The position numbers and the translations under genes were made by a program. Below the pieces are notes generated by a model. The model did not search any database and was not told the DNA's origin. It saw only the letters and a list, made by a program, of their open reading frames with translations. DNA of 62,457 nucleotides, counting the filler, from Hausera hauseri (taxonomy: Eukaryota), in the NCBI GenBank assembly GCA_046269625.1. It is 9 parts of 9 records of this genome, joined end to end, with 100 filler letters (N's around TTAATTAATTAA, not from the genome) between each part and the next. Parts side by side here need not be neighbours in the genome. Positions count along the whole stretch, not along the records: positions 34,993 to 39,897 come from JBJURY010396256.1; positions 39,998 to 48,842 come from JBJURY010523236.1; 7 more parts are not named here. The stretch is one strand, 5' to 3'. The number at the start of each line of letters is the position of its first letter. Position 1 is the first letter of the stretch. Of the stretch, positions 27,276 through 57,329 are shown in pieces.

Positions 27276-28600
27276 AGTAGATAGAAGTGTCCTCACTTAA
27301 TCACATCCCAAAAAGTGCTCAAATAGACCTGAAAACCGGTTTTCCCCACCTATCTCGCAATTATGAGCATTTGATGTCTGATGGTCGGTGACCCCTGCCC
27401 AGGGCGGAAGAAGGTCGGGCAATGGACTTTGAAGCAAGACCAATCGGTCGAGCCGGACAAAGCGAACAAGAGTTAACAACGCCGCGAAGACGAAAAATGC
27501 AACCAGGTGGCACAGGAGACGGAAGAAGAAAAACGGGCAGTGTGCAACTGGCAACGCAACACATGTTCCTGGTATACCGAAATTTTGTACAGATGTAAAA
27601 TTGATGTTGGCAAGTCGAATGGATACGGTTTCGTTGTCGTCCGACCAAGGGAACATGGGGAAAACCGGTTGGGAAAATTTCCGTCGGGTAAAATATCCCC
27701 ATGTTCAAGTCTGCCGGTGATGGAAATGGGTCCCGTACATTGCCCATAAGTTGAGGAAATTTTTACATTATAACCGCCTCACGATCAGACGATTGTAAGT
27801 CGGTGAAAAACGTCGTTAAAAATCATCATCATCATCATTATTGTAAAAAGTTCCGTTTCAATATGCAGGTATCCGAAACTGGGTCAGTCCAAAACTTTTT
27901 CCCGACTCAACTCATTCTCCTTGTGAGTAGTAGTACTCAGTTATGAGCTCGTGGTAATTTGTGCGTTGGGTTTTAAGCGTCGTCGTCGTCGTTGTCGTAC
28001 AATATAAAATTCACGATTTTTCTACAAAAAATCGAACGCATTTACAACGATGACTTTTTAACAACGCGTTTTTCGATTGCATTTTCCACCCGGATCCATT
28101 GGTCTGATCGTCAGATGGTTATAATATGAAATTTTTCCCAACTTATGGGCAATGTACGAGACCCATTTCCATCACCGGCAGACTTGAACATGGGAAATGT
28201 TCCCAACCGGTTTTCCCCATGTTCCCTTGGTCGGACGACAACGAAACCGTATCCATTCGACTTGCCAACATCAATTTTACCTCTGTACAAAATTTCGGTA
28301 TACCAGGAACATGTGTTGCGTTGCCAGTTGCACATTGCCCGTTTTTCTTCTTCCGCCTCCTCTGCCACCTGGTTACATTTTTCGTTTTCGCGACGCTGTT
28401 AACTCTTGTTCGCCTTGTCCGGCTCGACCGATTGGTCTTGGTTCAAAGTCCATTGCCCGACCTTCTTCCGTCCCTGGGGGAGGGTCGCCGACCATCAGAC
28501 ATCAAATGCTCATAATTGCGAGATAGGTGGGGAAAACCGGTTTTCAGGTCTATCTGAGCACTTTTTGGGAAGTGATTAAGAGAGGACACTTCCACCTACT
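27276..28600. mobile_element. Non-autonomous foldback/MITE-like element with ~500-bp inverted arms (27276-~27790, ~28100-28600)
   Basis: The arms are diverged reverse complements (AGTAGATAGAAGTGTCCTC... vs ...GAGGACACTTCCACCTACT); flanked by CCTAAA at 27270-27275 and 28601-28606. Confidence 0.85.
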
Positions 28601-34992: not shown

Positions 34993-37900
34993 AAAGAACA
35001 ACAGTACGCTGAGAGGCTATATAAAAGTTTGAAATTATGCAGTGAAGGAAAATTCGCTGAAGCAATCGACTTAAGACAACCTGAAGAGGTATTACCTGAA
35101 ACATTGTTAAAATGGAAGCATGAATTAGAATCATGGATTAAAAGCGGAGTCGAATTTTCGGAGGGTTGGAGTAAAAACGAAGAGAGTGTGGATGTGAAAG
35201 TCGCTATTGTCTACCTTAGAAACCAATCCAAAAATGAAGAGAGTAGTCCGTAATTTACAGCGTATGATGGATGAAATTCTCTGTGCAATGATCAATCGGC
35301 TAAGAGAAAAACCGGTTCACAATCGAAGTAATATTTATTTAGAAATATTGGGTATAGATCCAGTAGATATTCCGCCCTTAATGGAGATGATAAAGATCGC
35401 TTTCGCTGTACCTAAACAATACACGAATCTAGAAGACCGAATCAAAGTGGAAAATGAAAAGCGAACACAGATTTATAGCTTAAAAAACGGAATTATGTTT
35501 CCGAACCACGAAGAAACCTAATACGTAATAAAGGCTTGTATCGTAGAATTTGACGAATATAAGAACGAGTTTAGTTATGTCGGCCGGGTCATGAATTTTC
35601 TAAGATGGCCGGATGATGAATTAAAAGATGCATATAAGATGCTAGAGAAGTCTATAACGGCAAAGCCAATAATCGCCAATCAATTGTCGGAATGGTCCGA
35701 ATTAGTAATGTGATTAAGCAAATTAGTGGAAATCCGAAAGAAGGAATTTCCAGAAAGCGAACCTTCTGTAAAGAAACAGTTGGAAGAAAGTGCACGTAAT
35801 TTAGATACAATACTAGCAGAAATAGACATCCGAACGCGATTCGAAGCATTACGACGACTTAATTTTATGAAGAAGAAACAAGAAGCGACGATACTGGAAG
35901 AGATATATAAAATGGTCAAAGAGACAGATTTTACAGAAAAGCGAAATATGACTTGCAGTTTTTACCCGACTAAAAGGAGTTCAACATCTAACAGATTAAC
36001 CTATCAACAAAGTCTCTGCTCAAGATATTGAAACCCTAGACATTTGTCCGGAACATCGAGCCGCTTTTACGGACACGATAAAATTTCTGCATAAACCTCA
36101 AGAATGGATGACCGGATCAGATCAGAACTTCCATACCGAATTGATAAAGATAAGAAATGACAAGCATCTTAGTTTTCACGAATCTAAGTTCGTAAAGAAA
36201 TTGTCAGATGCAATAGATCCCAACTCAAAAATTATAAATGAAATGTATGTATTATTGGTAGAAATGGTAGAGATTAATGATGAGCGGATGAGGCAACTGA
36301 TGCCAAAGTTGCAGCAAGTCAAAGAAACGTGCATCAAAACAAAACAAAGAACAATGAGGCTAGATGAACTGGCAAAGGAATTCGAAATTTACCGAAACAA
36401 ATATGCGTTTACCGAATCAGAGATTAAAAATAAAGGAGAATTCGTACAAAGATGGCAAAAAGATGTAATTATTGAATTAACAGATTACCACCAAAAAGGA
36501 CTTATCAATTTTAATGAATTAGGCAAATTACTTCAAATGATTCAGTATGCCTGTGGAAACGGAGTAGGTTTCCGAACTACACAGATGAAGGAAATCCAAC
36601 CTAGATTGAATGAAATCCGAGAAAATGTGCAAAAAACAAACACAGCCTTAGTAGACTATCAACTTCCAGATGCCGCGAACGAACCCGAATGGAATGCGTA
36701 CTTTGACGCAATACTAGCCGAGAAACCCGTGACTCCAGTGCAATTAAATGAGATAGAAACATGTGCGCAGGACAGGAGATTCAATGTGGAGATGCTTCTG
36801 GATTCAGCGCTAACTGAAAATGAGTTAATCGAACTAATTAACGTAAACATTACGGAAAGTAAGTTAAGACAACTTATTCCAACATTAACTAAATTATTCA
36901 GCGAGAATACGATTTACAGCACGGTGTCGAAGCTTTTCATAAGGGAATACGCTAAAATCTTGAGGGCTAAACCAGAGGTAGCGATGAAAGTAATTATATT
37001 ATTTGAGTGGATGGACAAAAAAGAATGTGAGTTAACTACATATTCCTATGTAAATGACGTAAGAGAATGGTTATTAAATAATGGTGGGATAAACGAGCAA
37101 AACTATAATTTCTATTTTAGAGGTAGAATACTCGACGACCTAGAACAACCAATAGATGTCGGAATTATTTTCGACGAAACAAATCGCCTAGTAGCAACAA
37201 TAGCAAATGAACACACAAAACAAGAAGCTACATGTAAAGCCAATGCGGAACAATGCGTAGGACAAATTATGGGAGTCCGAGACGCTGCAATGTATTTTGA
37301 GTATTTACAAACAGATGAGGATAAGGAACAGTACGATATAAATTCAGTGCCACTAAGTGAAATAAGGACAAAAGGCCCAAGGCCGAAACGTCCAGTTGGT
37401 AGGCCTAAGAAAACGCGAGAAGAGGTGGACTATAATGGGGAGTTGATTAGAGAACTGAGGCAGATGTCGATTCCGACTCTCAATACAAATAATAAGGAAT
37501 TAAGTGAGTTAATGAACAATTTAATACGAATTGTAAATTATTTGAGCCTTCGAGGTGATGTACTAGATAATAAAGAAAAGATAATATTTGATGCAGCCAG
37601 AATGATGCGAAGTTCACGTTTTAAGTTATCAAAAAGTAACCTAACCGATGAAGCGGTAATCGAAAAGATCATGGTAAAAAACACCAATTAGGAACTGAGA
37701 AAAGTATTACTATACTTAGCTGTCAAAATAAACCCTAATCGAGAGAATGAAATCAATAGGGCTATAAGCTTGGCACGAAAAACAGCAAGAAGATTACCAT
37801 GCAAAGTAAATTAGTCAAGATTGTTTGACAAGGAAGAAGACAGACGGACCAGTATTAAACTCGACGATATTTTGCGTAATTTGACAACAACGGACGTTGG

Positions 37901-39897
37901 CTATCGGAAAAATGAATCAAATTGGTTAATCAGCCTACTCACCTTGATGATGCTAATAAAACACATAGGCGCTGTTACCGTATACGACTGCGATAAGTTT
38001 AAGCTAGGGCAGAGATATTCCATAATGGATCTGGAAGTGTGCGACGATTCTAGACCACACAAGTTGGAAACAGAAGAAAAAAATTACTTCCTGTACCAAC
38101 AACAAGAACTGATATTATTGGATGGAATGGAATGTATGTTGAGACGATCTCGCAGCATTTTCCACTGTGGATTATTGAACGGGCATTCATCAATAATTAA
38201 ATCGACAACTCCGCTAATCACTATGAACTTAGAACACCAGCACTGCAAACAGACTAAGGAGACCGGAAGAGTATAATGGGATAGTATGGAATTAGAAATG
38301 CAACCAGGAAAGATAATTAAGGCGTACAAAGTAGTGGCCGGAAGGTTAGATATGCACAGCGGACACTGTTACGGAGCAGAATACGATACTGGAAAGGGAT
38401 TGAAATCGAATGTGGTAGTCGTGAATTTCTGCGAATCGAAAATGCGATCAGAGAAAGTAATGTTCTATAGTGTCACCAATGAAAATCAGAAATGCCATTT
38501 ACAAGACGGGACCTGTGCTTTTAGAAGTTCTGTTATAATATGGGAACTTCTTTTCGGAAGAAGTTTTAATTTTATTAAAATTAAAGAATTGAAGTTTAAT
38601 GAGACTAAGGGAAAGCGATATGTGGATTAATCGGATACCAACTCAAGGACACGTGAGGACGTATCTGAACACCCTACACTCACTATATTAATCTCAGATC
38701 AGCATGGGCTGAAATTTATTAAAAAGGAGATGATCTCTCGCTGCGATGTAGTGATGTTCGCTACCAACTATGAGACATTTTTAATTGCAGAAACGGAAAT
38801 AAATGCAAAAACCTACAAATTAGAAACACAGAATGTCCGAATTGAAGATTACTTGAAGAACAGAGACTATTACTTCTATTATAAAGGGCAAGTCGGAATA
38901 ACGGAACTATATCACAAAATGATAATGAATGACTGCAAATTAGATACTGAAATCATGAAGACGAAATTGGCTCTTATATATGCAAACCCGGAATTGGCTT
39001 CTCCAATAATTCCTATGAGAGAGGGAATGTTCGGTCGAGTCACAGGCGAAGTACTGCTAACCTACGAATGCGAAAAGAGAGATGTACCCATTAATGTAGA
39101 GGAAAATGCTGCATTCAGAAACTTCCTGTCATTTATCAAAATACTCCCAGATTAGCTACACCGTTGACGAGAGTGTTACTGGACAATGCGACCCAACCAA
39201 CCATCCTTAGAGATTGCAAGGCGAGCTTAGGAGAGCCCATGCTTAGACGTAGTGAGACAGATAGGGTTAGTTTGCCAAATGGAGGCATTACTGCCTCCCC
39301 AAATAAATTAACAGGAACCAATCTCGCGAAAGGAATTGCTGACAATAAATTTCAAGATGCCTCGTCAAAAGACATATACAAGCCAAAGGAAATCAAAGCT
39401 TTCAGACAATTCTTCGCTTTCCCGCGACAACGAACGCACGAATTAAACCGAACCATGGCCTCAGTAGTAGACGATACACGGTATCAGGCTAAATGGGAAT
39501 CTTTATTAGGCGTAAATCATTAGTACATTTAATAATTAGTACACATGAAACGGAAGAATTACACTTAGAAAACAATGAGTTATATCCAAACAAATAATTA
39601 AGACAATTATCATAGAATATAGTATCTTCCCCCGAAATCCAAATCAATGGACATAAAATATCGGCGACCAAACGCCCAAAACTTGCATCAAACTGTTTCG
39701 GAACAGTAATAGAAGAAAGACCCTTCGCCAAAATCATTATTGAAGATTGGAAAGTTTATGCCTTAATCTATACAGGATCCAAACTGTCTTACATTAAAAA
39801 CGAGTCTATACCTAAATCGTTAAGGGGACAATTATATCCACCATCCACAAAAGATCCAGGAAGTACGGGAGCTTTTGGCCAAATGTCGAAACCGATG
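34993..39897 (+). mobile_element. Decayed copy A of a large env-bearing Ty3/gypsy element: helical region, internal signal, class III glycoprotein ectodomain, protease start
   Basis: ORFs at 36108, 37821, 38286 and 38730 share one frame broken by four single stops; the glycoprotein and the VYALIYTGS protease segment align with the pol-bearing copy at 39998-48842. Confidence 0.85.
37920..39523 (+). pseudogene. env: Chuvirus-like (class III, gB-type fold) envelope glycoprotein ectodomain, copy A
   Basis: Signal NWLISLLTLMMLIKHIGA then VTVYDC..SIMDLEVC, ECMLRRSRSIFHCG..HSSI, VAGRLD..GHCYGAEY...NVVV, CDVVMFATNY, DCKLDTEIMKTKL, GMFGRVTGEVLLTYEC, LPVIY...PLTRVL; this is the cysteine/motif pattern of chuvirus glycoproteins. 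Confidence 0.85.
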
Positions 39898-40039
39898 NNN
39901 NNNNNNNNNNNNNNNNNNNNNNNNNNNNNNNNNNNNNNNNNTTAATTAATTAANNNNNNNNNNNNNNNNNNNNNNNNNNNNNNNNNNNNNNNNNNNNGTA
40001 GTTTGTATATAGGGTTTTTAGGTATTCATTCATGTGCCC

Positions 40040-40661
40040 ACTTTAACATCTTATAAATCTCCTGTAAATATTGGTAACGCTGGCTAGCCGTTAAAAGTCT
40101 CGGAATTCTATTTGGGTTGTTGGTCATCGACTGTTATCTTGAAGAAGGCTTCTGGTGCGGTTGGTCGATTTCTTCCTTGTACGATTTTCTCCATTCGCTC
40201 TGGGACTACTGGATGGGTGCTATTTCCCTAAGTCCGGCAATATTTGCATCGGATATCTCTAATAGCTCAATTTCCCTTTTTACATTGTATCCTGTTATCA
40301 TACAACCATAAAGACAATGGCTTAACTCTGAACGGGCCTGTAGAATATCTTTTCCATTTATCAGTTGTTCTTTCCTTAGACCAGTTACTTCCACATGTGA
40401 TTCCTGAACATATTTCCGAGGGTTTATAATGGATGCGTATAATTCAGTCCCATCTCTTTCTCGAATAGATACCTCGATCGGTATTCCATATCCATCGTCT
40501 CCTTTATCATAGATCGTGGCCAAGATCCTTATGTTGCGATTGTCTTGTACTAACCTATACGATTGCATATGTTCATCCTTTTCTGCCTCTGTTGGGGTTT
40601 GTTTGAACTGTAGAACTGGCAAGTCTAAGTTGCAGCTCTCTTTATAAGTCATTTCGAACAT
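40040..40661 (-). pseudogene. DEDDh 3'-5' exonuclease-like domain (REX4/ISG20/DnaQ fold) with degenerate catalytic positions
   Basis: IEVSIRERDGTELYASIINPRKYV....EVTGLRKEQLINGKDI...L...LYGCMITGYNVKRE..LL...LREI follows the DEDDh core pattern (V.I...G..L....V.P......TGI....L......L.G.ILVGHN...D). Confidence 0.7.
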
Positions 40662-41213
40662 CAGTTTAACCGGTAAGGCTTATACTCGGAATTCTAATCC
40701 ATAATCAGTAGCTTCTAAACCTTGTCCACTTATTCTAAACGTGCTAAATCGGTATTGGCGCCATTTGTTACAGTTCCATTGCTGGTTCTTTATTCTGTAG
40801 TAAACTTCTCCGTCGGCCAAATGAATAAATATATATTCCACTTGGGCAGTTCTATTCTGGATTAGTTCCTTAAGATTATACAATTTGGCATGATAGTTAT
40901 CGCGCATTACGTATAGCAGAACTGTGCGATTCCTTTCGGTGGTTCACTTTAAGTCGTTGGGTATTTCATTTACTTTTCGATATCCGACATATGTTTTTGT
41001 CCGCAGTGCATTGTTTATTCTTCGGTATATGGTTTTCGATATGGGGACCAAAACTGTTCCGTATGTCTGTAAGAAGTTGTCGATTCTAGGTCGGCTGCTC
41101 GTACTTACCACTCTGAAAGAAAATACAAAATAAGAGTCAATCCTAAAACAAAGCACTGTTCGAAATTTGAACCAATTCTTTGTTTGAAGGTAGAATAACT
41201 CGATCTGTAGTTG

Positions 41214-42460
41214 TCAGGTTACTCCATCATTAATTCCATCCTGTGGTACCATAACCCTTAATTCCTTATCATAGATTTTAGGGCGTTTATTATAGCAGTT
41301 TTTGGTTATCAATCGACAAAACGCAATTAAGATTATGAGAGTGAATATTGATGTTTCAATAATTGATATTAATGACAACGTTGTCCATTTAGTTAAATTT
41401 TCCATTTTGACGGTAGTCGTAGTCTCATCATCTGTTCTCTCAGCTGTTACCGCTTTCCTTACGACAATCTCGTTCAAGATTCGTATTGTAAACACTCTAC
41501 CTTGTTTGTTTTCTGCACCCATTTGTATTATATAATCTGTTTTGGGTTTCAACCCAACTCATTGGATTTGATAACTGCCTTTTTGCAGTGTTACCTTCTG
41601 ATTATCGTGTAATGTTCGGCAGCTTATTTCTACGTCGTAGTTAAGTGTTTCCTTCATAATGAAAGTTATTTCTGGTTGTTGTGCCCCATATTTTACAGGA
41701 ATTATTTCTAAATTCTTCTGGGACGATTTGTTCGTTGAAATGATTTTAATGAGTGTAGGAGTAGTGGACTTTGTTTCCGTATTTGTAATTCTACTCGTTG
41801 CCATTCCCAGTGAATTCTGCTCGATCGGATTTCTAAATCGGTAGCTTCCTAGATAAATACTCGACTAGTTTGGTTTGACTTCATAAAAGTCTAACTGAAT
41901 CTTATATTTATATTTCTGGGGTAATTTACAACATCTTTTCGGCTGCTCCACGTCGATTTGACAGTACTGTTGGTTGCGAGTTTGTATGTTTTCTTTCAGG
42001 AACTGGACCGTGATTACTTGACAGTTAATGAATTGTCCTTTTGTGTTTATTTGAAGACAATTGTCCTTTGGATTTTCCGTTATACTGGCGATATTTTCCT
42101 CCAGCATTCGCTTTACTGGGTCGACGGATTGGAGCATTGGGTTTTATCCCACGATGCCTGTTCCAAGCAGGGACGACTAATTTGAATTGTGGTTTTATTT
42201 CATAGATTTTAAATAATTTCGGTAGATATAGTCGATAGGTAAGGTTATAAGTGTGTCCGAAATCTGTATTGCAACATTGCGTATGCTCTCCAGGCTCAAA
42301 ATCACAATTCTTTGCTCCTTTTGTTATTACGTCATCTAGGACAATTTAAAATCTTCCAGAATTGTGATGTGATTTCTTTGCCATAAATTCAACGCATGTG
42401 GAGCTCGGCGAGTAATAATGAATTAGGACTAATTGTAATAACGTAATATCTTCTTCTATT
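41214..42460 (-). pseudogene. Post-integrase type-I membrane protein relic (signal-like segment, Cys-containing ectodomain, Thr-rich stalk, TM)
   Basis: ITLLQLVLIHYYSPSSTC; CDFEPGEHTQCC and CQIDVEQPKRCC motifs; TTTT stalk; LSLISIIETSIFTLIILIAFCRL followed by basic residues. Confidence 0.55.
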
Positions 42461-42699
42461 GTTGGGGTCTTTTCTGTTCTATTACCCTCTGGTTTGGATC
42501 CACTTTTCCGCGTTCCGTATACGTTCTTTAGTGTAGATCCGTCGTGCCACAATTGAGTTTGTGTTCTCGGAATATAAGATCAGTTAGCGATAACGCTAAA
42601 ACTATCTGAACGTATGATATCGGTCTGGTGATAATTGACGAAGTCTTGTTTTCTGGTTGTATTAGACTGTAATGTTTAGCTGGCCTTATATCCGTTTTA

Positions 42700-45600
42700 A
42701 CTACTCTTTAAATCGATACGACTTCCTCTTTTCCGTTTTTATTGACATAAACCGTGGTTGGTATTGTATGGATGATTTCATATAGTCCTCTTCCAGTACG
42801 CGTTAATTTCAAGGATGTACCTTTTTTCGCGACTGGGTAATGTATATAAACCCAATTTCCTTTTTCCAGATCACGAGGCTTAGCCTTTTTATCATACTGT
42901 TTTTTAATTTGCCCTTGATATTCAAATGACAATGTTTTTGCAAGGTTCCCAACATTTCTGCAATCTTATCTGTAAGACTTCCGCAAAGTTTTGCTCTAAA
43001 TCTTGGAGATTCTTTTCGTACGATGTCATACCTAGATCTGTGGGTAGGATCGCCTCTCGTCCGCACATCATAAAGAACGGTGTGAATCCTGTTGCTGAAT
43101 GTGGTGTCGTATTGATGGCGGAATTCGTCCCAATCCTTTTGGTCTTTTGCCACTACTGTTGATAATATCTGAATAACTGTTGCGTTCATTCGCTCGACCA
43201 TCCAATTACATTGGGGGTGATACGCGGTAGTAGTTAAGCGTTCGATTTCGAATATCTTGGTAATTTTTTCAAATAATTCGCTTGTGAAGTTCCTTCCTCT
43301 ATCTGTTAGGATTTGTTTCGGTGGTCCGTATCTGCAGACAATTTTTTTTACCACTGCGTCAGCTAAGGTTTCCGCTTTTTGATCCAATAGTGCCCCCAGT
43401 TCGACAAAATGCGTTAATCGATCAATGCATGTTAGAATATATCTGTTATTTTTGTGGGTTTTAGGCAACGGTCCTACTATATCCATAGACGTAGCTTGCA
43501 TGGGCCTATCTGGTACGTTTATGGACTCTAATTGTGCTATGTAGCCTTTCATTTTTTTTTGTTTTGTTGCGCAAACTTTGCATTCTTCCACCCAATTCTT
43601 TACATCAATATAGATACTTGGCCAGTAGAATTTGTTTAATATTTTTTCCAATGTCTTCTTCAAAGGCATGTGTCCGGTTAAGTACGAATCGTGTTCGGCC
43701 ATGAATACTTCAGTGCGTAATCCTTTTGGAGTAACTATTAGTCTTCTTCCTTTTCGCTCGTAGTATAAGATATTATCTTGGTTTGATGCGCGATATTTTT
43801 GCCCGTATCTCTGCAGGTGTTTCTTGAGTTGTCGTCCTTTTGGTATTTTGTCGTTTTGTATGAATTCTATAATTTGTTGAATAACCGTGTCTTTAGCCTG
43901 CTCGGCTGTAATTCTAATGGTCTTATCCGATATTAGAGTTCTTTGTCGTTCAATCAATTGTTCGAGTTGTAGCTTTTTTACTATGACGATGGCACTAGTC
44001 TTTGTCTTTAGTCTTGATAGGGCGTCGGCGTCGACGTGTTTATTACCCGGTTTGTATTTAAAATTCAATGTTATATCGTGAGATTTCCTTTATCCAACGG
44101 TTTAATCTACATGGTGGGTTATTACCTCGTCCTTTAATGTTGTAACTGCTTTATGGCCGGTCACTATTATAATCTTTTGTCCATAGACATAGACATTAAA
44201 GTGTCATATCGCTTCCTTTACAGCTAACGTTTCTAGTTAGGTAACCGAATAATTCTTTTCTGCCTTCTTTAACGAGAGCCCTGCATAGGCTATTGGGTGT
44301 TCTACTTCTTCGTCTTCTCGTTTCTGAGTTAATTTGTATCCTGTGCCTTCTTTACTTGCATTTGTTTTGATGATGAATGGTAAATTAAAATCTGGATATC
44401 TTAAAACTGGTTCGCTTGTCAAAATTTTCTTGATTTCGTCGAATGCTTTTTTTTTCACTTCTGTCTATCTCCACTTAATTCCTTTTTTAAGTAGGCGATA
44501 TAGTGGTGCGTTAATTTTCGAATTGTCCGGCACATAGGTGACATAATACCCACATAGGCCGAACCAATGTCTTAACTCTTTCTGGTTTTGCGGTTCCATG
44601 CAATCGGATATTTTATTTAGTAATAATTTATCTGGTTTAGATCCTCCTTCTCCGACTATATATCCGACGTATGATACTGCGTTCTGTGCCCATTTACATT
44701 TCTTTGGATTTTGTTTTAATCCTGCTTGTTCCAATCGCATGAGTGTATTTTTAATTTCATTTAAGTGTTCTTCTTCTGTTTCTGATGCTATCATCACGTC
44801 GTCTAAGTACGCGAATGCATGATCAAGTCCCATAAGCATTTTATTCATCATTCGATTAAAAATAGCTGGTCCTAAGGTGATGCCAAAAGGCACAACATTA
44901 AATTCGTATACACAATCGTGTGTTTTGAACCTTGTCTTATATCAATCCTCTTCTTTGATTTCCACTTGCCTGTATCCCGATTGTAAGTCGAGAGTGGTAA
45001 ACCATTTCGCTCCTGATGGTCTACCTAATGCCTCTTTTACCGATGGTAAGGGGAACGAGTCCTTCATCATAAGCGTATTTAAGGCCCGATAATCTATACA
45101 AAATCGATGTTTTGTAGTTCTTTTCTTTTTAACCATAAGTATAGGTGAGTACCATGATCGGTAGCTTTGCCGGATTATATCGGCCATCAAAATTCGCTCT
45201 ACCTCTTTATTTATCTCCGGTCTCAATGAATGAGGAGGCGGGTAACACTTGGGCATTTTCTGTTCTTCTAGATCGATCTCGTCATTTGAGCCTGGTATCT
45301 TCCTTAATGGAATTGTTAATCTCAGAGCCTTTGCTCTACCTATATCTTCTTTATTTGGCGCTATTATCGAACGGTATTTACACAATAATTCGTAGAACTT
45401 GCAATACGCTTTGGGAGAAAATTTGGTTTCAACATGAGATGGAAATTCAGCACACTTGTACGGTTTCTCTTTTATTGTCACTGCCGATACTCTACAAGTG
45501 TGACCTAAAGGAGTGTTAGCGTGCAATCGTACGGGAATTGTTGCATTGTTCACTAATCTGATAGGTATTCGTCCCGTCACTACTCTACATAAAATATTGC

Positions 45601-46900
45601 TAAACATAAGGTTTGGATCAGTATTCTCTTGAGGCTCGAAATATACCGGCAAATCCTCGTCCTGTCTAATCTGTGCGAAAATTATCATTTCGGTTCTAGG
45701 GGAATGTTTTCATCTACCGGAATCCATACTTCTCCCGATTTCCTTTCCTTTATCATGTTTGTCCCTTTTATTGGTTCGAGCTCAATTAATTTTCCATTAT
45801 GTACATCGATTGCCATACCTGGTATCTGTTTCAATATATCACAACCGTGGATTCGGACGCCACCACTATACACCTGCCACAAGTCAAATGATTTACGATA
45901 GTCCCTCAAACAAAGAATGTTTTCAATAATTTACATTTTCACGGAAGTTTACCAATTAACAATCTCGGAATACTAATTGCGATTATTGTTTACTCCAACG
46001 AAAATTATGAAATTATCAGTGGAGTTCTACATCGAATAATGATGAAATTAAATAACGACTGATTGACAGCTGCTGTGTTATCCAACAATTTTATTGACTC
46101 GAAATTAATAATCAACTAGTACAGTTTCACTGATGTACAGATTCAATAGAAAATTAAATTAATCTTTCTGTAAAAAATGGCACGAAAGATGACATGATTC
46201 CAGAATATCTAGCTGACTGTACGAATGTAATTTTATGGATGTTTTCGTTTACAATTTCTGTTATTTACAAATTTGGCGTAGAATGAGATAAAGAGATAAT
46301 CAACTACTGTGTAGATTCTCAAGAAGCTCGGAAATTACTTCATTGTGTCACTGGCTGTGTCTAATGTTTCGTCGATCCTACTCGTGATGCCTTTATATAT
46401 ATATGGACCGAAGTTCGATCAAATCCTCAGACTATGTATATTTATATGTATGTAAATTTGTAGATAGATATGTAAAAATCGATAATAATTGAATTTCTTG
46501 TAGTAAAGAAATAAACGTAATTGTTTACCGTTGCAATTACTTTTTGGAATTTACAACATTATTATTTACCGTTTCATATACTTTTTACCGTCTCATTGTT
46601 ACCGGAATTGTTCGTCTCATCGTTTTTGGATTATATCTAAATAAATTAACAACATCGTCTGTTAACTGATCCATTATCGCAAATTCGTGTTGAAGTGCTT
46701 GGCTCATCGTATAAACGGTAGGAGTCCATTTAAATTTCGGCTTTGATACTTGCCCAAATGCTCCTACGCTGCCTGGGTCTGATGATAATGGTGGACGCAA
46801 TTGTTCCCGTAGTGTAGTCGGTGTCGATTTGTATTTTATAAACGATTTTTCTTATCCTGTGTCGATTAAGGCGTATACTTCTCAGTCTTCAATGTATATT
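42700..46900 (-). pseudogene. pol: Ty3/gypsy pol (PR, linker, RT, RNase H, integrase); protease interrupted by an insertion
   Basis: LIDTG and IHGCDIL halves of retropepsin; YLDD at ~44798-44809; ADALSR; H-x6-H...CKVC; MDIVGPLP, TDRG and VERMN integrase motifs. Confidence 0.93.
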
Positions 46901-47433
46901 TTAGCGGACGGTCTGCCTTCTACTACTGTTCCAAAGCAATTTGATGCTGCCTTTGATTGTTTTGTGGTAGAGAATCTGTATCCATTTATTGTTATCTCTG
47001 GCAATGAGAGGACGTTTTCCCTTAACTGTCTTAATTCTCCGTTTGGGTATAAATTATTATTTACCATCTCCTGGGTGCGACTGTCAATGAGCGGTTCCTG
47101 GGGTAATGGACCCAAATTTGAGCATAGTTTTGGGTTTTCCCAGATCGTCGATTTCAATTCTATGTGACGCGGTATCCTTTTTGAAGATAATATCCCGTAC
47201 ACATTTTCCGTTGGTCCTTGATTGATAGCGTTTATTTTTCGTAGTACTCCATAATGTTTTGTTTTTTTCGTAAGGATCCTCGTAATTAATAGGTTTTTGA
47301 TAGATTTCGGACCTACACTATACTATCAATTTGCGGTCGCAGTCTTTATATATTGGTGCAGTTGGTTGCATGATATAAATAATGCGTTAATTACCGAGTA
47401 CATTTTGTGCATCTTCATTCTAGAATTCCCTTC

Positions 47434-48842
47434 TCATCCCTTAGGCTCGTCATCGTCCGAATCATCTTTTCGTATTATTGTCTTATTCTTACGTCTATAC
47501 AAAATCGAGGGTCTTTCTCGTCGTTTTCGGTTACAGTATCCAACATGACGGTCTATGTCGTTTTTCCAGTGGTTTTCTTCATAGGCCTTAAGCATCTTCC
47601 CAAAGTATGTGATAATTGCAGTCAAAATTTTGCAAGAAAATCCTGTTAACATGAATATTTCATATCCGTTGATGATGGCTTAGATTACTGCTTTAATTAG
47701 CTGGACTAAAAAGTAGATAGCTAAGAATCCAGATGCGGCTTGTCCAAAAATTAGAAACCTTCCCCAAATTTTGTACAGTATTTCTGAAGTTACTCTTTGA
47801 TCGTGATTGGCGCCGAGTAATGACTCCCATTTCGCTAGAAAGCGGGTGTCATCCATGACCATTGATATGGCTCAATTCATTTCATAAGTTCGCTGTCGTG
47901 GAAATGCTAAAAATTGCCTAAAAGCTTCTATGTCTTTTGGTCTGTAAATTCCTTTGTTAGCTGTATCTTCTAATTTATCTTCCGATAATCCTTTGATTAG
48001 ATTTGTCCCCGTTAGCATACTAGGGACTGCGGTAGTACCTCCGTTTGGTAGACTTATCCAGTCATTTCCACTGCGTCTAAACATTGGTTCGACTAAGCTT
48101 GTTTTGCATTCCTTCAATATTGTTGGTTCGGTGAAATTTGCCAATAATACTCTGGTGAGTGGCATCGCTAGTCTCGTCATATTCTCATAGATGACCGGTA
48201 ATTCTTGCATGCAACTTTTTTCTTCTATGTTGATCGGTACGTCTCTTTTCTCGCATTCGTAAGTTAATAGGACTTCTCCAGTAACTAGCCCGAAAACACC
48301 GTCTTTCATTGGAATAATTGGTGATGCCAATTCTGGATTGGCATAAATTAAAGCCAGTTTGGTTCTCATGACTTCAGTATCTAATCTGCAGTCATTTTTT
48401 ATCATTTTGTGATATAGTTCCGCTATTCCGGTCTGCACTTTGTAATAGAAATAGTCGTCTCGGTTTTTGGGGTAATCCTCAATCCGCAAATCTTGTGTTT
48501 TTAAATTATACGTTTTCATGTCGATTTCTGTTTCTGCTACAAAAATGCTTCGTAGTTAGTGGCATACATAACTACGTCGCAGCGTGATAACATATCTTTT
48601 CTACTACATTTTAACCCGTGTACATCTGATATTAATATCGTCGGTATGGATTGTTCTATTACATCTTCCCTTGATCCGGTAGTTTCATTAAACTTTAACT
48701 CTTTGATTTTGATAAAATTGCAATCCTTCTTGGAGGGTGGATTCCATACGATAACCGAACTTCGCAACGTGCAAGCACCATCATGAATGTGGCATTTCTG
48801 ATTTTCGGTGAATAGTTTGGTAACGCTATGAAACATCGCTTT
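47434..48842 (-). pseudogene. env: Chuvirus-like envelope glycoprotein C-terminal half with membrane anchor and tail, copy B
   Basis: CRLDTEVMRTKLAL...GVFGLVTGEVLLTYEC...CMQELPVIY...PLTRVL...C...PMF...W; then IWGRFLIFGQAASGFLAIYFLVQLIKAVI...INGYEIFMLTGFSCKILTAI, the typical chuvirus-G membrane region. Confidence 0.87.
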
Positions 48843-48989
48843 NNNNNNNNNNNNNNNNNNNNNNNNNNNNNNNNNNNNNNNNNNNNTTAATTAATTAANN
48901 NNNNNNNNNNNNNNNNNNNNNNNNNNNNNNNNNNNNNNNNNNTACAAGAAAAATAAAATCCACTCTTTGATAAATGGTCTAATGAAGCA

Positions 48990-49265
48990 AAAGCGTGCAG
49001 AAGAGTTCACATGGGTTATGTTCATATTCCTAAAGCGGAACTGCTTTTGTTATTGGTTGATGCCCATAATGAATGAGCAGATGTCATTCGAGTTAACAAT
49101 AGGAATTTATCTATCATACAAACAGTATCTCATACATTTGTCTCGAATAATGCTCCTGAGTTTTGTGCACAGATCTTCATTGAATGGTTCAATAGGATTG
49201 GATGTAAACATTACAAAACAACACCTCACCATTCACAGTCAAATGGAATTGTGGTAAGAATGGAC
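48990..49265 (+). mobile_element. Degenerate Ty3/gypsy integrase core fragment from a third family
   Basis: RVHM...LLLVDAHNE*AD...TFVSNNAPEF...WFNRIG.KHYKTTPHHSQSNGIVVRM. Confidence 0.7.
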
Positions 49266-49545
49266 CATGTGACAAAATAGAGGTGTTTCTAGTTGGAACC
49301 ATAAACAAGAAAACTTAAGTGGATATGCGGGTAAATTTGTATAAAGTTATAGAGCAATCCCAAATGAAAAAAAACTGAACGATTGGTTTGAAATCGGCAT
49401 TGAACATTAAAATTGAACATTTTTTTAACTGAGGTCATTCCAACGAAATTACACTCATCAATTATGAAAATTATGTAATCCATAATTTTGTATGTATGAA
49501 ACAATTACTCCATTCAAACTGTCAATTCAGATCGAAAATCTTTAC

Positions 49546-49835
49546 CTTCAAAATCATAACTTCTTCTGACGTCGCCTCATATTTCGCTTTCAACTCAGAA
49601 TATTTGTGATCTAATAATTCCAACGATTTATTTTGTTCATTTATAACGTCCCGGAGGGCTTCTATGCAATTATGAGTCTGATTAGAAATCAACAACGGCA
49701 AAAGAGAATTTCAAACCATTAAATTTTTCTTCGACATTATCACACCGCAGCCTTTCTGACAGATAATTGGTTTCATCGGATTGAATTCACATTCCCGAGA
49801 ATGAATCGCGAGATTTTCCAATTTAACAATCAAAG
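49546..49835 (-). pseudogene. RNF41: RNF41/Nrdp1-like E3 ligase, two internal exons (zinc finger and coiled coil; 39-bp intron 49678-49716)
   Basis: IVKLENLAIHSRECEFNPMKPIICQKGCGVIMSKKNLM|THNCIEALRDVINEQ...EL matches the Nrdp1 SIAH/TRAF-type finger; RING and C-terminal exons are absent. Confidence 0.75.
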
Positions 49836-50039
49836 CACCGACTTCTTCTCGATCGGTCGGAGAATTTCCGAATGCCGTTTTTTCATGAATTAAAAAGTTT
49901 ATCAGATGATGATTTGACTTAAAATCTAGACATTTGTTCAATTAATTTATCCTTTTTACCTAACTCATCCTGATAAGCTTTGATTTGTTCTTGTAGTTTG
50001 AAAAGATGCAACTGCTAGTTGGGGAACGGCGATTATGCA

Positions 50040-53000
50040 TAGGATGCTCGGCTACCTGTGTTTAACAGGAAACAAACCAAAATTCAGTAGTGCTCGCTCC
50101 TGTCAACGAATCTTGGGAAATTTTCGAGGCGGAGAATCGGGCCCAACCAGGGGCCCGACAGGGCGACAACGGACGCCCGGTCGTGCCCGACGAAATGGGC
50201 CAGAGGGCGCCGGCCGCTGTGGGCACCATATCACCGTCCCCGTGACAAAGTGAAAACTATAAAGATTAAAATAGACGGAAAGAAAAAATCGCTAAACTAA
50301 AAAGTGTCTGCGTCAGCTGGTCTTAGTGTGGACAAGACTTTGGGTGCCTTTTACTGATTTTTCCCTGCTATTCTTGATAAATGTGACTCTGCGTGTATTG
50401 TCTTTATGCGATGTGTTTGCTTGCAGAGTTTGAAGTTGGGGAAAAACATTGCCGGATTTTGTTGTGAGTGTTGTGTCGTGCGAAGATGAGTTAGAATAAA
50501 GAGAAGAAGACGGTGAAGGAGGACGAGAGGTTGTTGGAGAAATACGGTTGAAGGTGTTCAAGAGAGTTTTGGAAGACAAAGGACTGGAAAACGTTGTAGT
50601 GGTAGATGAAGGAGGAGAGACAAAAAGTGGTGTAGAAATTGAAATTGTATTAGGTGAAAGCGTAGAAGTAGAGGATGAAACAGAGGTAGTAGTAGACAGA
50701 GGAAGAGAGATAGGGATAGGAGTAGAGAGAATGAAGTTGCGAAGCGGAGAGGAAAGGTGTAAAAGACGATGTGTGAGGAGAGAAGGAGGAAGCGAGCGCC
50801 GAAGATGAGGAAGATGTGGAAGGAGAAAGAGAGAGAGAAAAGATGGCGAAGAGGGACAAAACAGAAGAGAGCAAGAAGATGGAGAGATTAGTGAAGTCGA
50901 ATTGGTGTTTGATGGAGTAGGTCTTGTAAAAGGAGAAAGCAAGTAGTCACCAAGGAATGAAGGACGTGTGAAAAGGTTTGAAGATGCAAAATCGGATGAG
51001 GAAAAAGAGGCTGAACTGTCAGAAAAAACTGAAGTAGAAGTCTTGGGATAAAAGGTAGGGGAAAGTGGGTTAAAGAATTGAGCAGAGATGGAAGGTGAGT
51101 TGTGATTGCCGCGTGTCGTGTAAAAATGTTGAAACTACGGTGGGTAGCAATTTAAGAGAAGGTTCGAGCTGTTTGACAAAGCTGAAGGACGTCCGTGTAA
51201 AAGACTAGATGAAAGACTGTTTGACAATGTACAAGCGTAATTTTGCAGATGGCAATTTTGAGTCTGTCTGATAGCCGTTGTGGTAGAATTGGCATTAGTT
51301 GAGTTGGCACCATCCGGTAAATCATCAGGAATAATGAGACTTTCCAAAACACTTGGAAGAGTGGAAAATTTCTCGGCAATCTGAGACACTTTCGAGAAGG
51401 GAGATCGGGACCTGCCTATGGGCCCGACGCGACGGCAACGGACGCCCGGCCGTGTCCAACCAAATGGGCCGGAGAGCGCCGGCCGATGTTGGCACCATAC
51501 CCCCCCGTGGCAAAGTGAAAACTATGAAGGGTAAAAAAGAAAGAGAAAAAACCGAAAAGCGTAAAAGTGTCTATGTCAGTCGGTCTTAGTGTGGACAAAA
51601 CGTTGAGTGCCTTCTACTGATTTTTCCCTGCTATATTTGCTGAATGTGACTCTGCATGTTTTGTCTTTGTGCGGTGTGTTTGCTTGCAGAGTTTGACGCT
51701 GGGGAAAAAATTGTCGGATTTTTTTTAGTTTTATGTTATGGAAAGACTAGTCAGAAATAAGAGAAGATGAAGGTGAAGGGGGAAGGGAGATTGTTGAAGA
51801 CGGATAGTTAAAGGTATTCAAGAAAGTGTTAGAAGGTGGAGGATAAAAGAAGAGAAAAAGAAGTTGCAATAGAGGTTGAATTTGAATTGTGTGAGGAAGT
51901 GGAAGTAGAAGATGGAACAGAAGTAGTAGTAGAGAGAGGAAAAGGGATAGGGAAAGAGGTAAAGAGAGGAGGAAGTTGTAAAGCAGAGGTGAAAGGAGTA
52001 AAAGATGATGTGTGAGTAGAAAGGAGGAAAAAGCGCTGACGATGTGGAAGGTGTGAAAAGGCAGGGACAGGGAGAAAGAGAAGGCAGCGAAGAGGTACAA
52101 GGCGAAAGAGAGTGGGAAGATGAAGAAGGCAAGGGAAAGTAATTGGAGGGTGGTGTGCAATAGGTTGGAATGATGAAAGGTGTGGATGGAAAGATTTGTG
52201 AAGTCGAAATGGTGTTTAATGGAGGAAGTGCTGTAAAAGGAGAAAACAGGTTGTTGTGGGGGATGAAGGAAGTGGTGAAAGCCTTGAAGGTGCAAAATCG
52301 GATGGGGAGAAAGAGGCTGAATTTGAGAAGAAATTGAAGTGGAAGTTTTGGGAGAAGATGTAAGGGAAAGTAAATTAAGACATTGAGCAGGGATGGAAGG
52401 TGAATTGTTGGATTACTGCGCGTCGTATAACGATGTTGGTGTAGAAGTGACTTCGGTGGGAGACGTATGGTTGATGAAAAAGTCCGGTTTAGCATTATTG
52501 ATGTGAACGGTTACTTCTTTGTCGTCTTTGAGAATGATGATGTTATGGGAGTGTAAGCGAATTACTTTGTATTGGCCGATATACTGAGGTTGAAAGCCAC
52601 ACTGCGTCTCATTCTTTAACCAAACGAACTTGACAGTATATAAATCGTCGGATATGTAGGATTTAGTTACGTGTAACAGTCTGCAAAATGAGTCTTTGCT
52701 GATCTCAACGAAGTTTCTCTGTGCCGCTTAAATGATTTCATCTGTAGGAGTATTGTCCAGCTCAGTTAGCTCGAATAATGATCTGATGGAAGTGCCAGCT
52801 GCAATTGCACTGAGCAAAAATTTTAAGAGAAGTTTTCATCGTTCGGTGAAAACGTTCGAGAAGGCCATTCGATTGGGGAGGATATGGTGATGTGTGAATG
52901 TGGTTAATTCCCAATCGATTAGCAAGAGCTTTAAACAGGTTGGATTTGAACTGTGGACCTTGATCCGAAATGATGCGGCGAGGTGATCCAAACCTGCTGA

Positions 53001-56000
53001 TCCAAGTGCGGATAAAAACGTCTGCGATGGTTTCTATGTTAGTGCTCCGAAGCAGGACGGCTTCTGGCCTTCGCAAGGAACGGTCCATCATTGTGAGGAT
53101 GAACTGATGACCGTTGTATAAGTGTAATGGGCCTACATAGTCAATGTGAACAGATTTGAAACGAGACGTGCAGGGAAAGTGAAGCAGTGATGTCTTTGGC
53201 TGCATAGTAACTTTGTATTTTTGGCATGCCACACTGTCTAACCCAAGCCTGCACGTCAGAGCGCATCGACAGGCATATTACTTGCGGGTTGTAAGAGGCG
53301 AAAAGTGGCCTTGGCACAAGGATTATGCAGCGAATTTATGCTGTGGAACGCTTTCTTTTGAAGCAACTCAGAAAAAATGATTTGGGGATTATTAGGTTTG
53401 GAAGTGTCAAATGCCACACCGTCGATGGTTTTGCAAGATTTAAAAGATTTAAAGATGTCAAGCGGTGGCTGGTTTTGCTGAAGTTTGGATTGAGGAAAAA
53501 TTGGAGTAAAATCAATCGAGCTGACCGATCGGAACAAAAATTCAGCTACCACATTGTCGACTCCGTTTAAATGCTTAATTTGAAAATCAAATGTTGACAA
53601 ATAGGATATTTTGACTCTCCTGACGTGGAGAAGGCCATTTTGTGGTGAGAATTTGAAAGAAAGGCTTAAGGTCTGTTTGTATGGTAAAAGTTCGTGCAGT
53701 TAGGAGATGTTTGAAGTGTTTTACGGCAAGAGCCATTGCAAGCAACTCTCGGTCAAAGTTGGAATATCTTTGCTCTTGTGCTGTGAATTTGCAAGAAAAG
53801 AATTCCAATGGCTCACGGGATCTATTTTTATCTTGATGGAGGACAGCACCATCAGCTGTTGCGGATTCGTCGATTGTTAAGAAAAGTTCTGCATGGGAGT
53901 CTGGATAGGCCAGGATTTCCACAGTTTTTAAATTGTCTTTGAGGTGTTCGAAAGCGTTGAGTAGCTTGGTGGTCCACTGAATAGGCTGTTTTTTCTAGCC
54001 AGAGCTTAGTAATGCAAATGGAGCGGTTAGAGTGGAGGAATGTGGAACGTATTTATGAATAAAGTGTAAGGTTTCAAGGAAAAACGTATCTCCGTTGATG
54101 TACATGGTAGCTGAATGATTTTGAGCTGTGCGATGCGGTCTGGCTGAGGTGAGTGTCTGGAGGAGCAAATAACATGTCCTAGGAAGTTGACCTTATGTTG
54201 AAAGAAAGAGCGTTTGGAGAAATTGATTTGCAAGTTGTTTTGGTGTAACATTGGAAGATCAAACATAGGTGTTCTGAGTGCTGCTTAGAGGAAGATGATG
54301 TAATTAAGATGCCATCAATATAGGGACAGGCGAAGTCTAAATCTGAAAGAACTGTATCGATATGCCTTTGGAAGGTCTGGGAAGCACTACGGAGTTCAAA
54401 AGGCATAAAGAGGTACTGCTGGGGCCACCGGGATTTGGTGGTATGCTTTGTGTATATCAATGCAGGAAAAGATGGTCGAACCATGGAGTCTGTGTAGAAT
54501 ATCGGTGATTAATAGTAAAGGGTAGGCATCCATCGTTGTTATGGTGTTAAGTTGGAGGTAATCACCGCATGAGCGAAAGGTGCCATCTTCTTTTGCAACA
54601 GATGCGTGCAGGAGGAAGAAATGTATTGTTGTAAATCAGAAGGCAACAATGACAAATTATCCGATGTTGACGATGCATCGTGACTGGATGCAGTTGAGGT
54701 ATGAGTTATAGACGAGGTGTTGTGACTGGGTAGTATTTTTGGCAGGATGTTCGTGTTGAAGATGGTGTTGGCAGCTGTGCTATTAGTAATAAGTGCCACG
54801 CAGTTGGCAATATCGCATTTGTCACTGTAATAAAAATTTGTGTATAATAAATAATTATAAAAATAATTCAAATCGGTAGTCGTTTTCCTTAGTATTGACT
54901 TACTGGACGCGATCGCCTGGGAGGTCATCGGAATGCTGCTGATTTGATTAAGATTATTTCCGCTCTTTAAGGAACATTGTTTGCAATCTACAAGTAAATT
55001 GTTGTGGGGCAGAAAGTCTGAACCCAATATAGGTGTGTGTACATTGGCTATTGTAAATTTCCATGTGAATGTGTTTGTAAAGTGTGCGAGAGTGAGTATC
55101 AATGTGGTGACTCAAAAAATTTGTAAAGGTTCACCGGACGTAGTAAATATTTGTTTTTGTGAAGTGTAATTGTGTTAAATGTGGGATAGATTGCTGCGCC
55201 GCTATCTATAAGAAAGTTTATTTTTTGCTTTGTTGGAGTGATGACTGTTGCTTTCAACGTGAATACAGCAAAAGAAATGTGTCGGCTATGTTTCTGCTGG
55301 TTGTTGCCTTTGCTAGGACTTGTCGTGTGTCCTAGAGGCGAAATTAGTTTTTTGGAGCTGGTGAGTTTGTCCTACTGTTTTGTGTGAGCTTATTAGTGTT
55401 AGTCTTATTGTGTGTGCTGTAAGTACAGCCAGGTGGGCATTTTTGTGCTTTTGTGCCAAATTTTGAGTGATAGATGCAAACGATGTTGTTTGATTTAAAA
55501 TCAGAAGAATAGATTTTACAACCGATGCAAAATTTCTGAGCATTGTTGTGAAATGTGCTATGATAATAGCAAATTAATGACGGCGCTGGCGAAGGCGACC
55601 GTCTTTGACGTTGATTAAATAGATTGGGGGAAACAGGCCTAAAAAACCCCGTAGAAGTAGTGTTAATGCGTTTAGTTTGTCGTTAATGTTGATGATTGTT
55701 TTCTGCAATGTTTCATTTTTTGTGCGTAATTGCGCAATTTGTTGCTAAAGCATTGCATTTTGTTGTTGTTGATCTGCAGAGATAGTTCGTGCTGCATGTG
55801 AGTGCAGTACTTCGTTTTCCTTGTCTGCCAATTCGGCTAACTTGCCCAGAGCCGTGGAATCCGCAACCACAGTTAGCAAAGCTCTTATTTGAAGGGGCAG
55901 TGCATTTAAGAAATAGCGACGAAAAAGCTCGGCACTGTGTTCAGAGGTTACGCCAAGGGTGTTGAGGTCAGACAAGGATGTGCGTATGAATTCAGAAGGC

Positions 56001-56810
56001 TTCTGAAGGCCCATGGAGTTGTCGTTAAAGAACCTTTGAATGATTGAATCGATTGAAGGCTTAGTAAGCTTGAGAACGGCATTCTAGATTTGGGTATATG
56101 GGTCAGCGTGCTGAAGGATATCGATTATATTGATGATTTTAGTTTTGATGGAAGCTAGTAAGTGAAAAAAGAGGCTGTTGGCTTTGGCTAAAGAGCCGAC
56201 GACGTTTTGCGATTAGAGCCAAAATTGGTGCAGTTTTAACTAAGTTTGAGTAGTGTTTTGGCTATCGAGAAAATATTCGGTGCAGGGTGAATGAGGAGGG
56301 TATATTGAGTAGGGATGTTGGAAGCGCTGTGTTTGGGTACGTGAATGATGGGGATCTGTTGTTTAGTGAGTTTGTCCATGGTGTCAATTGTGGGTGACGA
56401 ATCTATGCCACCACGGATACGGAAATTAATATGAAGACAGATGTGGGTTGAGGAAGATTGTAGAGTTCCAACGAGGGGTACTAGAAATCCGTTGTGTGTA
56501 GGGTAGAAATCAGAGTAGTGGAGTAAGATGGAGATGAAGCTATGAATGGTTGCAGTGTGTAAATTCAATGTTACACATGTGTGTGTTTATTTAGAAAAAG
56601 AAAGATAAAGAGGGTAGAAGTAGTATGTCCGGAGGCGTGTTGCGGGGCTGAAGCGAAGGGCGCCGTCCGACCCACTGGCGCAGGGTGGGCGGCCGGGACG
56701 TCAGCCTCGTGGCGGCGAGTCCCAAATTTCGGGGTGATTGATGACCCCTCTGGCTGTTCATCGTAGTCGTTAGATGTAGAGGCAAGTTGCTGGGCGTAGC
56801 GGGCATGGTT
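50040..56810 (-). mobile_element. Decayed CsRn1-like Ty3/gypsy element, copy 2 (gag-PR-RT-RH-IN-tail-PPT-LTR start), followed by the 3' end of a further copy (50040-51250)
   Basis: gag MGLQKPSEF...FLNALP..IRALL...LAELADK and double CHCC; FLIDSGA; deleted RT; RNase H; integrase; two PPT+TG junctions at ~51490-51510 and ~50225-50245, each followed by a related GC-rich LTR-like sequence. Confidence 0.92.
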
Positions 56811-56959
56811 ACAAATGATTTCAACTGCGGAGAATGAACAGAATAGTTTTTATAGGCAAATTTAATCAAAATATTCATATAGCACTTAATGTGTATTGCA
56901 ACAATAATTGGATTGCCTTTGTATGAATTACTCAGTGTCTCTATCGGATACACTGGAAC

Positions 56960-57262: not shown

Positions 57263-57329
57263 GTCATTACTTCTGCTAGACGAGTAATTTTCTGATTGTT
57301 CCTTATTATCAGCATCCCGCGAGATCTCC

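Follow-up and report, generated by a model that had tools for sequence, protein, structure and literature searches.

Two decayed copies of a probable Burro-like Ty3/gypsy retroelement with env ahead of pol in Hausera hauseri

A 62,457-nucleotide stretch of DNA from Hausera hauseri (NCBI GenBank assembly GCA_046269625.1; "the window" hereafter means this whole stretch) raises the question of whether an envelope gene (env) lying ahead of pol belongs to one retroelement with it and, if so, whether such an element is new. Two of its contigs carry the coding remains of a Ty3/gypsy element with a fusion glycoprotein (Env) upstream of the protease (PR), and a sequence-only reading had proposed for them an X-Env-Pol-cargo design, possibly undescribed. 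Our analysis indicates that they are, in all likelihood, decayed copies of a high-copy Burro-like Ty3/gypsy retroelement. The plan of its lineage is very probably one polyprotein: Gag, cargo, signal, Env of the glycoprotein B (gB) type, transmembrane helix (TM), PR, reverse transcriptase (RT), RNase H (RH), integrase (IN), signal, fibronectin type III (FN3)-like ectodomain and TM. Because the same architecture has already been described, in the available texts, for Burro/GYPSM1 (PMC6431247) and for gB-type elements (PMC13524379), env before pol is a known arrangement and the element does not make up a class of its own. Two features appear unreported: a second signal-ectodomain-TM protein that follows the integrase, and a YPx(n)L motif within the cytoplasmic tail of Env.

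Env and pol in single-frame relatives and in the two copies

The order of domains is conserved in relatives that are intact within a single open reading frame (ORF), and so are the hydrophobic segments. A HMMER search with the env piece of copy B, the minus-strand copy, returned 330 proteins at E<=0.001, of which the best 150 were considered, and 8 long proteins came from a further search that used the Env-PR portion of the relative P0003. Domain order was counted in the 107 proteins of at least 600 residues among the matches listed. Env stands alone in 84 of these, while in at least 20 (17 clusters at 90%) it is followed by a protease, with Gag between the two in none. At least 12 proteins hold Env-PR-RT-RH-IN on one chain, and at least four (P0021, P0155, P0157, P0158) hold Gag-cargo-Env-TM-PR-RT-RH-IN; in P0018, RT-RH precedes Env, and two further proteins are without Env. 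The Gag profile matches six relative clusters, among them three proteins used in building it. The earlier proposal of a single polyprotein, in which the Env TM leaves Pol on its cytoplasmic face, is thus strongly supported by the single-ORF relatives, whereas release of Pol from the Env tail by PR is presumed.

The relatives come from ENA, JGI and Logan metagenome contigs, with one exception. P0003 (NCBI HBK71150.1), a full Env-Pol-FN3 polyprotein, is filed as a hypothetical protein of a Flavobacteriaceae metagenome-assembled genome, a label that most likely reflects eukaryotic contamination. Scans of viral and metagenome contigs for related loci were negative. In P0152, P0010, P0002 and P0155-P0159, a single polyprotein contains several protease domains, up to 7 in the 4844-residue P0152; some of these proteases lie after the integrase, and ankyrin and C2H2 zinc-finger cargo occurs alongside them.

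In the window, the Env and pol parts of the two copies are as follows.

37926-37974, plus strand: internal Env signal sequence of copy A, its only hydrophobic stretch; an equivalent precedes Env in relatives
37971-39541, plus strand: Env ectodomain of copy A, Monjiviricetes/gB-type (PF24664, lineage profile), with point stops, a frame break near 39100 and the TM deleted
39580-39855, plus strand: end of the Env tail of copy A with an LYP motif, then the N-terminal half of the aspartic protease, where the contig ends (profiles, motif scan)
47590-48842, minus strand: C-terminal two thirds of Env in copy B, including a TM at 47670-47757 (PF24664, hydrophobic scan)
47023-47052, minus strand: LYPx3L late-domain-like motif in the cytoplasmic tail of copy B Env (motif scan)
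46654-46911, minus strand: N-terminal part of the copy B aspartic protease with a DTG motif (RVP E=0.011; lineage PR profile, independent E-value [iE]=0.006); its C-terminal part lies at about 45790-45846
45847-46651, no strand: AT-rich (31% GC) secondary insertion splitting the protease (low depth, bridging contigs, all three minus frames closed)
44129-45130, minus strand: reverse transcriptase and RNase H of Ty3/gypsy type (RVT_1 E=3.7e-33, RT_RNaseH_2 E=3.4e-29)
42723-43729, minus strand: integrase (H2C2, core and C-terminal part) with frame breaks near 43119 and 42920 (Pfam, alignment with relatives)

As the sequence-only reading had held, the contigs are two diverged, overlapping copies, A at 34993-39897 (plus strand) and B at 39998-48842 (minus strand), with limits confirmed as exact. 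They overlap in the C-terminal part of the glycoprotein and the start of the protease, with 69% nucleotide identity over 38481-39519 versus 48806-47804 and 67% over 39570-39895 versus 47062-46737. Differences between the two env sequences are concentrated at third codon positions (47 against 17 and 10 at the others in 106 codons, and 84 against 34 and 20 in a second stretch of 137 codons), so the copies diverged as coding sequences before they decayed. Sense frames are strongly depleted of stops in every segment compared with both other frames: 2 against 73 and 60 in the 642 codons before env in copy A and, in copy B, 7 against 56 and 33 in the 634 codons of the single frame running from env through the tail to PR, 6 against 84 and 53 in the 860 codons of pol, and 5 against 29 and 26 in the 400 codons at the 3' end.

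Both copies are dead relics. The four point stops reported in the long frame of copy A (37689, 37812, 38274, 38628) are exact in position. That frame had been said to run from 36108 through the glycoprotein; it opens at 36000, 36108 being the first ATG, and leaves the glycoprotein near 39100 (model position 391 of 653), after which env continues in another frame. Since copy A is without about 0.7 kb, in which the TM of Env and the greater part of its tail would lie, the TM and tail claimed for the element are seen only in copy B. Protease follows env without an intervening Gag in both copies, as claimed, but in copy B it is split by the AT-rich insertion of about 0.8 kb. Neither Gag nor a long terminal repeat (LTR) was found in the window, where both contigs end inside coding sequence.

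From one public sequencing run, which shares only 0.27 of the stretch's words and therefore may come from a relative and not from the source itself, 20969 contigs mapped on copy B, mostly 80-95% alike, and covered 30 of 30 bins. Their depth, which is not a copy number, was 77-174 over the insertion and 1600-41000 elsewhere, and 9 contigs (4 rows) join across the insertion. The family is therefore abundant and includes the post-integrase cargo, and only a few copies have the insertion, for which no identifying repeat ends were found at 45847-46651.

The glycoprotein belongs to Pfam family PF24664, Monjiviricetes_fusion (E=6.8e-24 in copy A, 3.5e-41 in copy B), and the lineage Env profile matches copy A at iE=1.8e-80 and 2.2e-15. 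In a FastTree phylogeny of 96 rows, built after excluding 9 near-duplicates and pieces shorter than 330 residues, both window copies fall inside a 21-row branch (support 99), whose other members are two truncated proteins and the full set of 17 Env-then-PR proteins. P0128, a BEL-type env protein, belongs to a different part of the tree and matches the window Env at E=4e-7, compared with 1e-37 to 1e-24 for lineage members. The family assignment behind the earlier label of a chuvirus-like class III Env thus holds, but "chuvirus-like" is loose for an Env that forms a separate branch within the gB-type family. PDB sequence searches gave no solved class III relative, and the class III fold of the gB-type Env is taken from PMC13524379, as far as described there.

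After Env, copy B shows Pfam matches to RVP (weak, E=0.011-0.015), RVT_1, RT_RNaseH, Integrase_H2C2 and rve, that is, the order PR-RT-RH-IN with an H2C2 integrase. Against PDB its RT matches Ty3 RT at E=4.9e-64, the next other family at 3.3e-49 and the best retroviral chain at 6e-28, in a reference set that contained no BEL/Pao RT. These matches place the element in Metaviridae (Ty3/gypsy), with an RT closer to that of Ty3 than to retroviral or caulimoviral ones. The RT is 41-48% identical to 13 lineage RTs, compared with 32% to two plain gypsy copies of the window, and groups with the Env-Pol lineage in the RT tree, on a long branch. Between PR and RT, a segment of about 130 residues aligns with relatives and has no Pfam match, at the place where a dUTPase-like domain is expected in Burro-like giants.

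Cargo before env and after the integrase

Upstream of Env, copy A holds three features.

34993-36824, plus strand: upstream coding region in three successive frames, 34993-35250, 35198-36028 and 36000 onward (stop counts)
36825-37202, plus strand: helical segment and ubiquitin-like (beta-grasp) domain, the latter at about 36984-37202 (lineage profile)
37398-37412, plus strand: GRPK motif, presumably AT-hook-like; the same motif lies shortly before the Env signal in P0005/P0152, P0006, P0156 and P0010

A helical region of more than 900 residues had been claimed here. The coding region exists, with 0, 2 and 2 stops in its successive sense frames against 5-73 in other frames, but it is not all helical and contains a ubiquitin-like domain. 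A profile built from 9 relatives, the window excluded, matches 36825-37202 at iE=3.5e-11 among 54 window frames. Against PDB, a profile of the domain from 8 sequences including the window had only ubiquitin-, ISG15-, NEDD8- and ubiquilin-type chains among its best 60 rows; the smallest E-values are inflated by poly-ubiquitin repeats, and the best single-domain value is 0.0015. The window sequence alone found no ubiquitin in PDB, so that the profile was needed. An NTF2-like fold for this region was rejected, having reached only Z<=4.6 from a single-sequence AlphaFold model with a predicted local distance difference test (pLDDT) score of 44. On profile evidence, a ubiquitin-like domain before Env is conserved in the lineage, the window included.

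The stretch 34993-36824 matched neither a Pfam family below E=0.01 nor the Gag profile and had no relative in the databases or the ESM Atlas, and word-index searches with the window env piece and the upstream ORF gave no match. Six relative clusters have Gag farther upstream within the ORF that encodes Env. On this ground the X region is most plausibly cargo that separates Env from a preceding Gag, and the idea of a Gag-less element is rejected. In relatives this position can also hold a BCL-2-like domain (P0011 by Pfam, E=0.00096; P0002, P0164 and P0022 by similarity). A four-sequence profile of it gave no match in the decayed window, in which BCL-2, MATH and BIR domains were not detected.

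Downstream of the integrase, copy B continues with four features.

42572-42620, minus strand: second internal signal-like hydrophobic stretch (hydrophobic scan), with a counterpart in 10 of 11 relatives extending past IN
41382-42571, minus strand: ectodomain of a second membrane protein, beta-rich, its last domain FN3-like at 41466-41669 (weak Pfam match, relatives' profile)
41300-41381, minus strand: TM helix of this protein, followed by a tail of about 55 residues (hydrophobic scan)
40245-40499, minus strand: exonuclease-like segment resembling SDN1/ISG20 (PDB: SDN1 E=0.0068, ISG20 0.033, ISG20L2 0.037), which we take to be of DEDDh type

The last ectodomain segment matches Pfam Pur_ac_phosph_N, an FN3-like family, at E=0.0013 and fn3 at E=0.018. 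With a profile of 10 post-IN domains from 8 relatives, 41466-41669 is the best match in the window (iE=5e-4); an earlier three-sequence profile had not picked this region convincingly. In the ESM Atlas, the P0003 domain falls among FN3 clusters at 0.90-0.92 (10 of 10 named matches). We regard the FN3-like character of the protein, in the window and in most relatives, as a lead only. A single-sequence AlphaFold model of the post-IN region (pLDDT 40) was discarded as too poor for use, the TM helix being the only confident element of the AlphaFold2 model. The polyprotein may in fact terminate at the stop about 55 residues after this TM. The exonuclease-like segment lies in the same frame as the TM region and is covered at family depth; the match is weak and degenerate, with no evident first acidic motif here. 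By eye, the N-terminus of P0023 also carries a DEDD-exonuclease-like segment, before Env, which does not match that of the window.

It is possible, if on balance doubtful, that the FN3-like membrane protein and the exonuclease play no part in a particle and are incidental passengers specific to the lineage, or else separate ORFs farther downstream. The post-IN ectodomains of relatives are very divergent, with few pairs that align; none of the 107 long relatives carries an equivalent of the exonuclease; and DEDD exonucleases are optional ORF3 cargo of rotifer LTR elements, in the available text of PMC5408684. Against this, at least two further hydrophobic segments giving the order signal, ectodomain and TM recur beyond IN, across the whole Env tree, in 10 of the 11 relatives long enough to reach past it, and copy B is alike. 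For the exonuclease, a passenger or separate ORF is the likelier reading; the membrane protein we continue to treat as a conserved part of the polyprotein.

The Env tail and a possible infectious phase

Both window copies carry LYP in the Env tail. In relatives, with three same-cluster proteins excluded, the tail between Env and the first protease contains YP in 16 of 17 (shuffle mean 5.5, maximum 12 in 2000) and YPx(1|3)[LI] in 12 of 17 (shuffle mean 1.7, maximum 6 in 2000), while the full motif occurs in 0 of 14 control stretches of equal length. In retroviral Gag, YPXL serves as the late domain that binds ALIX (PMC8952333, in its available text), and we infer that the YPx(n)L of the Env tail may act as a late domain here.

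Under the proposed mechanism, one mRNA would be translated into one polyprotein threaded through the membrane of the endoplasmic reticulum (ER), as in flaviviruses, with crossings at signal 1, the Env TM, signal 2 and the second TM. Gag and cargo would stay in the cytosol; signal 1 would send Env into the lumen; the Env TM would return PR-RT-RH-IN to the cytosol, with Pol tethered to the Env tail; and signal 2 would start the type I, FN3-like surface protein. Threaded in this way, Gag, Env and Pol would be made one-to-one and gathered on one membrane. Clustering there could let PR dimerise and cut Pol (RT, IN) from the Env tail. For budding, ALIX and the endosomal sorting complexes required for transport (ESCRT) could be recruited through the YPx(n)L motif. 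Fusion of the particle with its target, a germline cell, would then fall to the gB-type Env, and attachment or mimicry of the host surface might be the task of the FN3-like protein. We give an extracellular infectious phase about even chances. Further still, and only tentatively, the widespread Burro-related branch may consist of true two-glycoprotein viruses with a capsid, a gB-type fusogen bearing an ESCRT late domain, enzymes and an FN3-type attachment protein, with four membrane crossings. To our knowledge, a split of fusion and attachment between two glycoproteins is known in no reverse-transcribing virus.

Several observations weigh against this reading. Both window copies are broken, so the single ORF is seen in relatives and not in this family's own copies. 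Six relatives (P0006, P0152, P0156, P0159, P0161, P0164) start 125-500 residues before Env without Gag, and there Gag may therefore be a separate or cut-off ORF. P0159 has none of the post-IN hydrophobic segments, P0023 and P0164 do not match the FN3 profile, both FN3 Pfam matches in the window fall below curated cut-offs, and Atlas recognition of the P0003 domain is low (1626). The motif counts are non-independent because the relatives are kin. Moreover, 35 of the 67 tails of stand-alone Envs, a set with some near-duplicates, also contain YPx(1|3)[LI]. The motif is therefore not peculiar to this design and resembles a trait common to the Envs of gB-type retroelements and viruses at large, which suggests that a putative late domain is widespread on the Monjiviricetes/gB-type fusogen class.

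The same architecture could instead serve an intracellular element, in which Env would act as an ER membrane anchor for assembly, in the manner of intracisternal A-particles, or in fusion with a neighbouring cell, with no free infectious particle. The 1:1 stoichiometry of Gag to Pol is unlike that of retroviruses and favours this alternative. So does the fact that the window family is known from genes alone, while the proviral status of Burro itself is called a hypothesis in the available text of PMC6431247. We consider it unlikely: a complete, selected gB-type ectodomain would be costly for a purely intracellular cycle, as would the late-domain-like motif and the second surface protein.

That env and pol are separate nested insertions, a viral glycoprotein relic or BEL/Pao env beside an ordinary gypsy pol, draws some colour from the fragmentary copies and the secondary insertion in copy B, but it is highly improbable and rejected because the Env tree and the RT grouping both place the window in the Env-Pol lineage, with BEL-type P0128 elsewhere, and because both copies and at least 20 natural proteins share the same Env-tail-PR junction, with Gag between Env and PR in none of these proteins; the single-ORF relatives in effect refute it.

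The polyprotein element remains our preferred reading. Its Env-tail late-domain-like motif and FN3-like post-IN surface protein bear on whether env-before-pol elements make infectious particles, and both conserved features bear on the budding of a one-ORF retroelement. Neither the second post-IN membrane protein nor the Env-tail motif is reported in the available text of PMC6431247 and PMC13524379 or in literature listings; their novelty is weakly evidenced because Repbase, Dfam and subscription journals lay outside the search.

Neighbouring contigs and known systems

The stretch consists of short contigs strung together with spacers between them. The neighbours of the two copies include host genes at 7329-9486 and 57221-57826 (MIF, a mitochondrial carrier and a C-terminal piece of O-GlcNAc transferase) and another, plain Ty3/gypsy family in three copies (17814-22451, 48943-57828 and 57929-62457; mutual nucleotide identity 65-71%). 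A diverged satellite with a unit of about 44 nucleotides fills an entire contig at 22552-27147, and an inverted repeat pair of 516 nucleotides, 91% identical, at 27276-28600 is possibly a fold-back or terminal-inverted-repeat element. Taken together, the neighbours point to a eukaryote rich in repeats, most likely an invertebrate; the MIF gene is uninformative as to phylum.

Among known systems, the non-canonical nematode endogenous retroviruses of Sacco et al. (2022) reportedly have a continuous gag-env-pro-pol ORF and, like the window element, a Metavirus RT and a captured RNA-virus glycoprotein before pol. The bdelloid LTR elements Vesta and Juno carry a DEDDy exonuclease as ORF3 and so share a DEDD-family exonuclease downstream of pol (PMC5408684, available text), whereas the weak, degenerate match of the window is to SDN1/ISG20 and lies beyond a second membrane protein. 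Anakin-type BEL/Pao elements with a chuvirus glycoprotein share the Pfam glycoprotein family of the window (PMC13524379, available text). Anakin has a BEL/Pao pol followed by env, in contrast to the Ty3-type RT and upstream env of the window, and identity with it was rejected on these grounds and on the distant Env branch.

Errantiviruses of the order GAG-ENV-POL with ENV of the herpes simplex virus gB type are described from Nematoda, Bryozoa and Platyhelminthes (PMC13524379). By that description they resemble the window element in Ty3/gypsy pol, gB-type Env and env before pol. In the available text of that paper, polyprotein, fibronectin-like or exonuclease cargo, ALIX and tail have no occurrence.

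The closest likeness, drawn by description and not by sequence, is to Burro/GYPSM1 of planarians, a giant ORF with env in frame between gag and pol, Ubi/SUMO and BCL-2 cargo, and an Env that matches mononegavirus fusion glycoproteins (PMC6431247; Jurka 2007 and Grohme 2018 as described there). Burro-like giants are further marked by traits such as a dUTPase-like domain between PR and RT and a size above 25 kb (PMC6431247, available text). Shared with the window lineage are a one-ORF env between gag and pol, as found in relatives, a mononegavirus-type Env, a Ubi2/SUMO-like domain before Env corresponding to the ubiquitin-like domain of the window, and BCL-2-like and ankyrin cargo, seen in P0011 and P0152. 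The differences are the second post-IN membrane protein and the exonuclease, which are unmentioned for Burro in the available text of PMC6431247. The Burro design would thus represent a broader lineage with a conserved, fuller plan, comprising at least 17 protein clusters, all from metagenome contigs.

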